A DNA stretch of 64,000 bases from Euryarchaeota archaeon UBA130. GTDB lineage: Archaea > Thermoplasmatota > Poseidoniia > Poseidoniales > Thalassarchaeaceae. This document shows, one piece after another, positions 32,737 to 37,079 of this stretch; position 1 is the first letter of the stretch; each line of letters opens with the position of its first letter. The position numbers and the translations under genes are program-made. A model generated the notes under the pieces. It did not search any database. It saw only the letters and a program-made list of their open reading frames with translations, and was not told where the DNA came from. The stretch is from assembly GCA_002505775.1 (NCBI GenBank), contig DAVY01000007.1, positions 12,656-76,655 on the forward strand. The letters run 5' to 3'.

Positions 32737-35700
32737 CTACTCCTCAAAGAGTGCTTCGATATCTTCTTCGCTTAGAGCATCATCTACAGACAATGCCACA
32801 TCTTCCGAGGACTCACCTTTCTCCTCAGATAATTTCGAAGCATCTCCATCATTCATGGTATCCGAGACCTCAATAATTGATTCAGACTCTTGCTTCTCCG
32901 AGTCCAACTGGATATCTGCATTAGATGTATCTTGCGAGTCATCTATTTCCGAATCTCGGTCGACCTTTTCTGGAACGGGATCGAGGGTTTTTGATTTAGG
33001 CCCATCCATCCTACTTTGTGAGTCAAATGGGTCATAATCAGGATCGTCAAAGGCATCATCCACTGAAACTTTCTTCAGACTCTTAGTCTGATCCATTCCC
33101 GATACTAATCCACTGTCCACAGGCGTTCTTCTGTTCTTGATCAACATGAAACCTCCAGAAAGTGCAATTAATACTGCAATAATCAATATTATACCGTACG
33201 ATGAGAAGAACGCACTTAGGCTAAAGGGCGCAGCTGACACGGTCAAAGTTAGTGTTGCTGAGGAACCTTGCCCCTCGTCCAATGCTGTCATACTAATCCC
33301 TCTGTTTCCAGAGCCAACAAACGACCATTCAATCCACTTTCCTTGAATATCAATATCGTTGGTTGCATCACCATCACCATCACTATCAACAGAGGTGTCC
33401 ATGTCCCAATTATAGACCATATTCTCCATATCTAAGATTGAGTCACTAGTCCCATTAGCACTGAAGAAAACAATTTCCCCCTCTACTGGATTAAATGTGC
33501 TCGCTGAAACTTTGGGAAAGGGGTTGACATTTCTCACATCGATTGGAATCTCTATCATCGCGGAGCTTCCATCATCATCAGTCACGTGAAAGACAATCAT
33601 ACTGGGCGAGGTTGTAGCGTCTGGCCACGCCATCTGAAGTGTTCTGGACTCAATGTCGCAGTCATCAGCTGCATTTCCAGAGCCATCTGAGTCAATCATC
33701 GGTTGTATGTCATAGCAATTCCGGAGTGTCAGCTGATCACCTGCTGTATCGATGGTATCAATCGTGATGGAAATCTCTGAATCTTCCGCCACGGGCAAAG
33801 GGTCAGCAACTGGGCTAATCTGAGGCTCAAGGTTCACAATTTCGATAGGAATAATCAGTGATTCTGTACTTGCCCCGTCATTATCTACTACCTGCAAGGT
33901 TGCGAGATGTAATCCGGAGGTATGATACGTATGTTGCACTGTACTTTTTCTACCCTCAAATGTAATGATCTGGTCCGGATTATCTTCTGCGTCAGGACTC
34001 CAGAGGTGTAATAGTGAGGACAAGTCATTTTCAGAGTCATCAGCCATGCCTTCAAACATCAGTAAATCGCCTTCATTGGCAACATAAACCCCCCTGCTAT
34101 CAGGGACCATCCTATTTCCCTCCTTCCACACTTCCGCTCTAGGGTTTGTTGGTGCTATATTTCGAACTTCAACCGTTTTGTTTGAGTACCCAATATCCCC
34201 ATCATCATCAACAGCTTCGACACTGATTGTGTATTCTCCTTCTTCCTCAGGTGTCACAGTGCAATATACTCCGACTTGCCCTTCCTGGCATGGGTAATCT
34301 GAAATCCATAGAATATCCATTGGCGCTTGTGGGTTTTGAGTGTCGACATCGCTTCTTTCCTCGACGTTAAACTGCAATGGCGAGAGAACGTTAGTCCACT
34401 CGTATTCGGACTCGATAGTAATCTCAGGAGGTCGGTTCACAATCTCAATTACGTCACCAATGACTGCCAAGTCATTTTCATTATCTGTGAATTCCATGAC
34501 GATGTCGAATATTCCGTCGTCGTCCCACTCAAACTCGACAATGCACTCCTCTCCACCAGATATTTCGACTATCCCATCCTCATTCTCGACAAAGAAATTA
34601 CATCCAATAAACTCTCCACCGTCTGGGTCATACGAAGAACTAGCATCAAGAATCACAGCAGATTTTGTGAGAGACTGAGCTGGCATATCTAAAGTCGCCA
34701 CAGGAAGCCTCCCTATCCACAATGAAAATACACCGTTATTGTTGGATCTGTCACCATCGTCAGTTATTGACTCATTAGGATCCACTTGGAAAGAAAGCGA
34801 AATTTGCCCTATGGGGTAGGCATTAGGTACGGTCCAATTAACCTCCACGATAGCTTGCCCTAAGCTCGGAAGTGAGGGAACTTGGGCAGTCTGTACAGAT
34901 CCATCAGGAGACTCCACGTTCATTGTAGTCGCGGGAGAAGGCAGAAGCCCTCTATTCTGTATCGGCATGTAGAATCTTAACGTATCCTGGGGGACAGCAT
35001 TGAAGCCAGTGGAGGAAGCAAGGGTTGTAGTTGATCCCCCCCTTGTCCTCTCAACAGTAACCCCCGAGGAAATAGCCACCAGGTCAACAGCACTCACATT
35101 AGGGTCGATGGTGATTGTCGATACTCCGACAATCTTCTGGGAGGGAATCCATGCGATTACACCATGACTTCCTGCCTCGCTACCTCCCTGCGAGTCGTCT
35201 ATGGAATTTCCGGAATTAAACTCCACATACGCAGTTCCGTTAGATGAGGTAGTCACTGTTCTGATATCCCCGTCAATTCCATATCGGAACTCCACTTCTT
35301 GGCTTCCGGCAGATAGTGCCGAACCATCCTGAGTTACAGTGAGTATTGCTGTCGTGTTTAGATCGAGTGGGGAAAGAGGAAATTCAAGATCAACTGTTAT
35401 TTCCTTACTTCTCGCAACATCTTCCGGAATATAATTTTGAAGCTCATGAAATGCATTAATCCCATCTATGATGTCAGTACTGGATGACACGTCTCCTCTG
35501 ACAGCAGGGCAGAACCACCTATATCCGTCAGCTGAACCATTAGCATCGAATGTTGTTACGTTGTAGGATTGCTGACATTGTGCGTATGGCGTCCCTGGGG
35601 CCCCTCTTGACATCACTTGCCAGCTCCTCAACTCGCTGGAATCTGAGTCTGCTGGGATGTCTACGAAATCACTTGAGCCCTCATATTCTGTCTCTTGGTA

Positions 35701-36300
35701 ATAGTTGGACGTCCAATAGTCTCCGACAGTGAGCGGGAAGTCATAACCTTCAGTAGGAGGGGAATAAGTTTGAGTAATTGTCAACTCCGCGACGTCTATA
35801 TTTATTGTCCACCAAAAAATCCTATATCCGAAGTCAATCTCTATTGTTGCTTCTTGTTCGATTACTGCTAAGTCAGAGGCACGAATCAGCTCAGTAGTAT
35901 CCATTTCTATTTCCAGATCTCCATTATTACCGTCAAGATTGACATTCTGTGCTTCATAAGTTCCTTGGGACTGGGCCTCGTATACCAGTGTAGATCGGTT
36001 ATCAACAGTAGTGGTGTAGATATCAGTGACTGTCCTATCCAATGTACCAGTCAGATATTGGACATTCGTCGAAACTCCAGATGAACTGACAAAGTCTCCG
36101 ACATCCAGGTATCCGTCGTAAATCCATCTATCCCCTACTCGCCAGCTGGGTAAGTCAGCTATTGCCGTATTCCTATCCGATGAACTTGATACATTTTCAT
36201 CAATTCCTACCTCGGCCAGATCTTCTGGTGATATCAGGAACACACATTGTGATATCAGTATCATTGCCATCAGTACGGCCGACGCGGTGGCTTTACCCAT
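32737..36300 (-). CDS. Giant surface protein with tandem PKD-like domains, a C-terminal TM anchor and a long acidic cytoplasmic tail
   Basis: Signal-like N-terminus (MGKATASAVLMAMILISQCVFLISP). At least 5 repeated domain endings of the type V.D.DG......I.I.V.N..P (VEAVDDDGD..VEVRNIAP, LQVVDNDGAS..IEIVNLEP, FHVTDDDGSS..IDVRNVNP). TM helix YGIILIIAVLIALSGGFMLI, then about 170 aa of D/E/S-rich tail. ATG at 36300 preferred over 36354. Confidence 0.85.
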   Translation of the reverse strand: MGKATASAVLMAMILISQCVFLISPEDLAEVGIDENVSSSSDRNTAIADLPSWRVGDRWIYDGYLDVGDFVSSSGVSTNVQYLTGTLDRTVTDIYTTTVDNRSTLVYEAQSQGTYEAQNVNLDGNNGDLEIEMDTTELIRASDLAVIEQEATIEIDFGYRIFWWTINIDVAELTITQTYSPPTEGYDFPLTVGDYWTSNYYQETEYEGSSDFVDIPADSDSSELRSWQVMSRGAPGTPYAQCQQSYNVTTFDANGSADGYRWFCPAVRGDVSSSTDIIDGINAFHELQNYIPEDVARSKEITVDLEFPLSPLDLNTTAILTVTQDGSALSAGSQEVEFRYGIDGDIRTVTTSSNGTAYVEFNSGNSIDDSQGGSEAGSHGVIAWIPSQKIVGVSTITIDPNVSAVDLVAISSGVTVERTRGGSTTTLASSTGFNAVPQDTLRFYMPIQNRGLLPSPATTMNVESPDGSVQTAQVPSLPSLGQAIVEVNWTVPNAYPIGQISLSFQVDPNESITDDGDRSNNNGVFSLWIGRLPVATLDMPAQSLTKSAVILDASSSYDPDGGEFIGCNFFVENEDGIVEISGGEECIVEFEWDDDGIFDIVMEFTDNENDLAVIGDVIEIVNRPPEITIESEYEWTNVLSPLQFNVEERSDVDTQNPQAPMDILWISDYPCQEGQVGVYCTVTPEEEGEYTISVEAVDDDGDIGYSNKTVEVRNIAPTNPRAEVWKEGNRMVPDSRGVYVANEGDLLMFEGMADDSENDLSSLLHLWSPDAEDNPDQIITFEGRKSTVQHTYHTSGLHLATLQVVDNDGASTESLIIPIEIVNLEPQISPVADPLPVAEDSEISITIDTIDTAGDQLTLRNCYDIQPMIDSDGSGNAADDCDIESRTLQMAWPDATTSPSMIVFHVTDDDGSSAMIEIPIDVRNVNPFPKVSASTFNPVEGEIVFFSANGTSDSILDMENMVYNWDMDTSVDSDGDGDATNDIDIQGKWIEWSFVGSGNRGISMTALDEGQGSSATLTLTVSAAPFSLSAFFSSYGIILIIAVLIALSGGFMLIKNRRTPVDSGLVSGMDQTKSLKKVSVDDAFDDPDYDPFDSQSRMDGPKSKTLDPVPEKVDRDSEIDDSQDTSNADIQLDSEKQESESIIEVSDTMNDGDASKLSEEKGESSEDVALSVDDALSEEDIEALFEE

Positions 36301-36350
36301 ACATCCCCTGTGGAGAAGGGGCAAATCAATGTGACTATCGACTGAGCTAA

Positions 36351-37079
36351 TCACATCGCTCGATAGTCGGGGAGGTCTGCAAGCTCATCTTGGATGAATT
36401 GGACAGCCTCTAGGATCTGATCCTTGGCCCTTGCTCCAGTGATAACCATCTTGCCACTTCCGAATATCAGACAAACTACTTTCGGGTAGTCCAGTCTGTA
36501 AATTAGTCCCGGGAACTGTTCTGGCTCGTACTCGACTTTGTCAAAAGGCAGATGGAATGTGAGGTTATTGAGATTGAGTCTTCTGGGAAGAGCTGCTAAT
36601 GGCTCTCCTTGTTTAATGCCCCTAATCCTTGGGTCCTCATTTTCAACCTCCTCATCAGTTGCGGCCCTAATCCCATTAGCCTCATCAATGACTTTGGTGT
36701 TAATATCATCCATCTTAGCTACTCCAGTGTAGTCTTCGGGGAAGAAGAGTGAGTAGGTAGCAACCATGTTCTGCACTTCAATATCGACATCAGCAACATC
36801 CCATGTAGAAATTCCCGCAGCTCTTAGATCCCCTATCATCCTCTCGATCCCCGTTTCGATATTCTGTTGGTTCTTACCACCAGTGCAGACAGCTCTGCCG
36901 GATCTGAACATAAGTATCGCCAATTTTGGATCCACTACCCTGTAAACCACTCCAGGGAATTGTTCAGGCTCGTATTCACAATTTAGTTGAATTGCAATAT
37001 CTGGGAGGTCTAGCTCCTCTGCAACTCTGGTCGACGCTACAACATTCACTACAGTTAGGCGTTCTTCATCGCTTAGCAT
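36351..37079 (-). CDS. tbp: TATA-box binding protein with a ~55-aa insertion in the second repeat
   Basis: Two TBP repeats: VNVVASTRV..LDLPDIAIQL..EYEPEQFPGVVYRV..PKLAILMFRSGRAVCTG and VQNMVATYSL..LNLNNLTFHL..EYEPEQFPGLIYRL..PKVVCLIFGSGKMVITG. 242 aa against roughly 180-200 for typical archaeal TBPs. Confidence 0.9.
   Translation of the reverse strand: MLSDEERLTVVNVVASTRVAEELDLPDIAIQLNCEYEPEQFPGVVYRVVDPKLAILMFRSGRAVCTGGKNQQNIETGIERMIGDLRAAGISTWDVADVDIEVQNMVATYSLFFPEDYTGVAKMDDINTKVIDEANGIRAATDEEVENEDPRIRGIKQGEPLAALPRRLNLNNLTFHLPFDKVEYEPEQFPGLIYRLDYPKVVCLIFGSGKMVITGARAKDQILEAVQFIQDELADLPDYRAM

Follow-up and report, generated by a model that had tools for sequence, protein, structure and literature searches.

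A two-layered acidic insert in the second repeat of the TATA-box binding protein of a Poseidoniales archaeon

The only TATA-box binding protein (TBP) found in the genome of an archaeon of the order Poseidoniales carries an acidic insert of 54 amino acids in its second repeat, between the end of strand S1' and the start of helix H1'. The insert consists of two layers, a base of about 20 residues and, nested within it, a tip of about 33 residues. Few transcription proteins of archaea and eukaryotes are as conserved and as compact as TBP, and the archaeal versions are commonly regarded as minimal saddles. Poseidoniales rank with the most abundant archaea in surface seawater; to our knowledge the order has no cultured member and no transcription biochemistry. 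The gene lies on the minus strand of the window, which is the whole stretch of 64,000 nucleotides that was analysed. Its features, in window coordinates, are the following.

36351..37079, minus strand: the TBP gene, 242 codons and a stop; the sole bona fide TBP of the genome
36822..37058, minus strand: repeat 1 (residues 8-86), canonical, including Phe41 and Phe58; from Pfam, invariant columns and the secondary structure of the model
36750..36779, minus strand: strand S1' of repeat 2 (residues 101-110); from DSSP on the AF2 model and alignment to canonical TBPs
36708..36746, minus strand: outgoing arm of the base layer (residues 112-124), with a conserved P-E-D-Y motif; common to all Poseidoniales sampled
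36612..36707, minus strand: nested tip (residues 125-156), predicted as a beta-hairpin (125-133/136-139), an acidic helix (142-146, T-D-E-E-V) and a strand (153-155); from the model and the comparison of long forms
36585..36611, minus strand: returning arm of the base layer (residues 157-165, G-E-P-L-A-x-x-P); common to all Poseidoniales sampled
36372..36584, minus strand: remainder of repeat 2 (residues 166-236), with H1' at 170-176, S2' with E183-Y-E-P-E187 and Phe189, Phe206, and H2' at 219-234; from Pfam, PDB matches, alignment and model

The 242-residue protein translated from the minus-strand open reading frame 36351..37079 contains two tandem TBP repeats (PF00352; E 5.9e-51, 170.7 bits against a Pfam cut-off of 22.9). 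It matched 35 TBPs in the PDB (phmmer), the best solved relative being the M. jannaschii TBP 2z8u, whose alignment covers residues 5-121 and 177-236 but not the roughly 55 residues in between. In an alignment of 50 sequences from Poseidoniales, MGIII and diverse archaeal representatives, F41, F58, F189 and F206 are invariant columns; following established TBP structures, we take these to be the two Phe pairs that kink the TATA box. E183, E185 and E187 are nearly invariant in the same alignment. The E185-P186-E187 at the start of S2' presumably corresponds to the residues that contact TFB/TFIIB, equivalent to human E284/E286. The saddle fold, S1-H1-S2-S5-H2 twice over, is found in the predicted model (AF2; mean pLDDT 92, pTM 0.81), which matches 2z8u with an E value of 9e-19, a target-normalised TM-score of 0.92 and an rmsd of 1.7 (Foldseek). 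A TBP of this kind would bind TATA DNA and recruit TFB, whose genes are present in the genome. Near-identical proteins are annotated publicly as TATA-box-binding protein only, and the names on them are those of Candidatus Thalassarchaeum or Thalassarchaeaceae, the Marine Group IIb (MGIIb) of the order Poseidoniales.

Two features of the 3' end of the gene were also observed. TBPs of the source genus have a C-terminal extension of about five residues (P-D-Y-R-A-M; window 36351-36372), and nearly all other Poseidoniales TBPs end at D-L-L. Directly next to the stop codon, or overlapping it, begins the gene for a 1205-residue PKD-type surface protein (32737..36354).

The insert occupies residues 112-165 (window 36585..36746), and H1' starts after it with L-N-L-N-x-L. 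An earlier note, made from the sequence alone, had picked out the right peptide and assigned it to the S1'-H1' loop of repeat 2, a location that the 50-sequence alignment bears out; the range given there, 36582-36746, was one codon too long. The acidic character that it ascribed to the segment also stands, with 13 acidic and 6 basic residues, as does its view that the protein is of unusual size for an archaeal TBP. The two EYEPEQFPG motifs, 148 residues apart here, could both be located in 87 representative TBPs; in 79 of these they are 89-98 residues apart, mostly 91-95. No domain other than TBP was detected within the insert by Pfam, residues 108-170 matched only TBP fragments in the protein atlas, at lead-level scores, and a second copy of the insert was not found in the organism's own genome. 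Tryptic peptides unique to the insert include VIDEANGIR, AATDEEVENEDPR and QGEPLAALPR.

The insert is predicted to be a folded module. Its ten-residue blocks have mean pLDDT values of 88-95 in an AF2 run on the 50-row alignment, in which only about a dozen rows bear the insert. DSSP on this model assigns the strands and the helix of the tip as listed above, followed by a normal H1', and isolated beta-bridges at residues 112, 120, 160 and 165. In this prediction a short stalk is made by pairing of the base segments, and the tip is built of a hairpin, a short acidic helix and a strand, a reading that fits the nested pattern obtained by sequence comparison. The same secondary-structure elements occur in an independent, lower-confidence AF2 model of a 452-residue relative. 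Foldseek matched the TBP core only, and no solved chain covered the insert (query-normalised TM-score 0.63-0.68).

The TBP domain is a helix-grip with strand order 1-5-4-3-2, in which S1 and S1' are the central antiparallel strands of the saddle and H1' runs across the top of TBP towards the stirrup. From this textbook topology, the module would be expected to leave the C-terminal lobe at a lateral face, next to where H1' begins and adjoining the N-terminus. It would then sit neither on the DNA-binding underside nor at the stirrup itself.

TBP was matched in 148 of 151 Poseidoniales species genomes, and the insert was read out in 60-odd TBP genes from the genomes with a match. Every one of these has a motif spacing of at least 115 and the base layer of about 20 residues; none has the canonical spacing. 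The shortest forms, with a spacing of 115-116 and about 20 extra residues at the S1'-H1' site, show the base pattern H-Y-P-E-D-Y-D-G ... G-E-P-x-A-G-x-P-R-K. They are found in most MGIIa and, within MGIIb, in genera g2 and g3, most of g10 and part of g9. The insert is absent from the sister order MGIII, where the spacing is 93, and the TBPs sampled from other Thermoplasmatota lack the base, with about 20 residues fewer than the short MGII form.

Most MGIIb genera, and two species of MGIIa, have the nested tip of about 33 further residues. Spacing is 148 or 149 (occasionally 153-161) in the tip-bearing genera g1, g4, g5, g6, g8, g12 and g13, and 154-158 in g7, g9, g10 and g11. The two MGIIa species, both of genus g17, have 44-50 extra residues and a spacing of 165. 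All long forms (spacing 148-165) contain a strand, a turn and a strand, after which comes an acidic segment with the pattern h-R-x-[AP]-T-[DE]-E-E. The long-form tips are therefore homologous elaborations and not unrelated fillers. The idea that the insert might define a lineage, raised in the earlier note, holds for the base, which marks all Poseidoniales sampled; the pattern is richer than was supposed, with a variable tip nested on that base, and the layered insert provides a clean lineage marker for MGII clades.

Insert length differs even within one genus, from about 20 to 70 residues. For example, the spacings of congeners are 121 and 165 in g17, 115 and 154 in g10, and 115 and 158 in g9. 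The cores of such long and short congeners are nearly identical, with 3-6 differences outside the insert region, and 40-50 residues differ at the site. No core position that changes consistently with insert length was found in the within-genus pairs. A tree built from the TBP core only is a polytomy inside the Poseidoniales, because the core is too conserved, and does not separate an ancestral long form with repeated deletions from repeated gain. In a third Poseidoniales family (f2, genome G004) the TBP (L037:1564-2259) has an insert of about 26 residues at the S1'-H1' site and also a basic insert of about 20 residues in the inter-repeat linker.

Insertions recur in archaeal TBPs at a second place as well, the inter-repeat linker, as judged by sequence comparison. 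Some MGIIb TBPs have, in addition to the S1'-H1' insert, a much larger one there. TBPs of genus g3, 560-565 residues long, have a linker insertion of about 360 residues (L034:710-2389, minus strand; L035:1381-3075). Members of the 452-residue cluster P0122, on 14 contigs of up to 127 kb, have one of about 210 residues together with the S1'-H1' module; it is modelled with pLDDT below 50 throughout (AF2). A stretch of about 50 residues within the linker insertions matches PHROGs for head decoration, virion structural and tail fibre proteins, and also proteins with tail-collar (Collar), Mtd_N and endosialidase-chaperone (Peptidase_S74) domains. Outside the Poseidoniales, a linker insertion of 136 residues was seen in a Theionarchaea TBP (P0173, KYK30211.1) and one of about 74 residues in another uncultured archaeon (P0206).

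A diverged TBP of 201 residues (P0129 type) is 52-54% identical to Poseidoniales TBPs and retains the base insert; its C-terminal half is 60-68% identical to them and its N-terminal half 43-46%. Its gene (L125:1959-2564), on a contig of 3.2 kb, is flanked by that of an ATP-dependent DNA ligase (L125:337-1854) and by a small ORF. A 42-kb IMG/VR contig has a small ORF, ligase, small ORF and RFC-like gene (L205:5965-8140), the same string without the TBP. The ligase of the 3.2-kb contig had no match among 61 Poseidoniales genomes, and a pattern scan of IMG/VR with P0129 gave no match. Annotated TBPs are also found in haloarchaeal tailed viruses. The diverged TBP was probably captured from an MGII host by a virus.

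The insert of the source organism is widespread among its close relatives. The form with a spacing of 148 is present in all 10 genomes of the source genus, and the same form recurs, at 87-98% identity, in over 100 protein clusters, of which one alone was seen on 575 contigs. Selection was examined in 30 genes from MGIIb genera with the 148/149-spacing form. The insert had a pN of 0.126 and the core one of 0.053, while synonymous sites were saturated in both (pS 0.83 and 0.81), and many insert columns were invariant, charged ones included. These values indicate purifying selection on the insert peptide, about 2.4 times looser than on the core. Each of four studies yielded a metatranscriptome contig that runs through 36585..36746 uninterrupted (99-100% identity, 0 gaps, no joints), although contigs from RNA libraries may include DNA.

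The earlier note judged the gene to be functional, and the sole-TBP status, intact core residues, purifying selection and presence in RNA libraries all agree with that. It had also proposed a search for a second, canonical TBP. None was found by a Pfam TBP search of the organism's own genome (a MAG of 1.35 Mb, 83% complete), and a second TBP was likewise absent from two single-contig relatives, G027 of the same family and G003 of MGIIa. With a single TBP found, and that one insert-bearing, every transcription start in the organism must therefore use the insert-bearing protein.

The genome also contains a weak TBP-like ORF of 174 residues (L003:1216-1740; contig C3:133173-133391 region). It has one Pfam TBP-domain match (29 bits, residues 96-168) but no EYEPEQFPG motifs, and of the five other Poseidoniales genomes checked, four encode a weak counterpart. 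This is a TBP-fold protein and no second TBP. Two TFB paralogues are encoded in the genome, both of them present throughout the order. The second (L081:757-1782, contig C11 of the same genome) is 341 residues long, about 40% identical to TFB1, and has a basic N-terminal extension of about 45 residues ahead of the zinc ribbon.

What the module does can be stated with about even confidence only. It is read here as an accessory surface element on the C-terminal lobe of TBP. It would not disturb TATA binding or the TFB contact that canonically lies at the C-terminal stirrup, and it would add a conserved acidic surface for docking or steric effect. Such a surface may tune assembly of the pre-initiation complex or recruit a lineage-specific partner. 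The tip would be an optional addition, as close relatives do without it; given that congeners lacking it have nearly identical cores, it cannot be essential for basal transcription. The earlier note had suggested that the insert could alter TFB binding or the assembly of the pre-initiation complex, and the tests run gave no support for this. TFB1 is 86-100% identical, without indels, across 40 genomes with short and long inserts. Unchanged whatever the insert length, it shows no hint of a surface co-adapted to the insert.

The constancy of TFB1 across insert forms is also what would be expected under the main rival explanation, a possible but less favoured one, in which the loop is merely permissive and holds a self-folding segment that is kept only against destabilisation and does nothing specific for transcription. 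The lability of insert length between congeners of g17, g10 and g9, whose cores are so alike, fits this well. So do the faster evolution of the insert relative to the core and the existence of a second permissive site, the inter-repeat linker, that takes inserts of 200-360 residues in relatives. Three observations, all drawn from sequence comparison, nevertheless suggest that the insert is not purely neutral. Conservation extends to charged residues of the surface type, not to hydrophobic ones alone: the acidic helix and a neighbouring basic stretch are conserved across seven genera, the helix and R-I-R-G-I being invariant or nearly so while synonymous sites are saturated. The same tip architecture, the hairpin plus acidic helix, recurs in distant lineages, in all long forms and in the MGIIa lineage as well. 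The base layer is kept in the diverged, fast-evolving and probably virus-borne copy.

The accessory acidic surface might, as a more specific and rather unlikely variant, be a dedicated docking platform, with the base as a stalk and a swappable tip that binds a lineage-specific regulator, co-factor or viral factor. If so, TBP itself would be a regulatory hub in an archaeon, a role otherwise tied to eukaryotic TBP with its TAF, NTD and Mot1 partners. The virus-borne TBP, with the base layer and the TFB-side half kept, would then be a means of redirecting host transcription.

A weaker rival is autoinhibition by DNA mimicry, where the acidic module would compete for the basic concave surface of its own or another TBP and so lower non-specific binding. 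Such a mimic would resemble TAND1 of TAF1 or the acidic C-terminal tails of some archaeal TBPs. Every insert variant is net acidic (-1 to -7), and Poseidoniales TBPs stop right past H2' with no acidic tail, as this explanation would have it. It is nonetheless doubtful. The module is predicted to be rigid and confidently placed relative to the core (at the pLDDT and pTM values given above), with no flexible tether, and its likely exit at the lateral edge, judged from topology, makes it improbable that it reaches its own concave face. The entire protein is acidic in any case, with 42 acidic and 24 basic residues.

Inteins have an N-terminal Cys, Ser or Thr and a C-terminal His-Asn followed by Cys, Ser or Thr, and are at least about 130 residues long; an archaeal bulge-helix-bulge intron is cut from the RNA and its sequence is unconstrained as codons. 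That the insert is missing from the mature protein, as an assembly artefact, an intein or an in-frame RNA intron, has nothing further in its favour than that the insert is in frame and absent from studied TBPs, and is highly improbable: an artefact is rejected by its presence throughout the source genus and on hundreds of independent contigs, an intein by its 54 residues, far under the required size, and by its lack of splice-junction residues (it starts Phe-Phe and ends Leu-Pro, with Arg next), and an intron by the retention of the segment in RNA-library contigs from four studies and by the low pN relative to pS, which marks constraint at the level of codons, while no direct or inverted repeats flank the segment in the TBP gene.

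No published description of the insert was found in a search that left out most subscription journals, and it is without mention in the TBP evolution papers PMC7221094 and PMC3597702. The accessory surface, if it is as predicted a folded and selected add-on to the only TBP, would mean that every promoter in MGII cells is read by a decorated saddle. Should the module have a partner, it would be a rare case of elaboration of a basal factor in archaea.

The solved archaeal TBPs, from M. jannaschii (2Z8U), S. acidocaldarius (1MP9) and P. woesei (1PCZ, 1AIS and 1D3U), have the same two-repeat saddle, with target-normalised TM-scores of 0.83-0.92 and about 30-36% identity, and the four intercalating Phe residues and the E-P-E of S2' are common to all. 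In those proteins only a few residues link S1' to H1', whereas 54 residues, predicted to be folded, do so here. Another comparison is with the short-form TBPs of MGIIa (Poseidoniaceae) and some MGIIb, 204-210 residues long. These have a core that is 84-88% identical and the same base layer at the same site, but lack the hairpin-plus-acidic-helix tip of about 33 residues, with a spacing of 115-121 as opposed to 148.

The linker-insertion TBPs, such as the 317-residue Theionarchaea protein KYK30211.1 and the 452- and 560-residue proteins of MGIIb, also come from uncultured archaea and have large internal additions with both repeats kept. Their insertions are unrelated in sequence and occupy a different site, between H2 and S1', which by pseudo-symmetry would be on the opposite lateral face.

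In eukaryotes, the N-terminal domain of TBP is likewise a lineage-specific add-on of variable length to an invariant core. It should even leave the saddle at the same corner, given that in the known fold the start of S1 is beside the end of S1'. The eukaryotic domain is unrelated in sequence, and it is terminal and largely disordered, in contrast to the MGII module, which is internal and predicted to be folded. The likeness between the two would thus be one of logic, not of descent.
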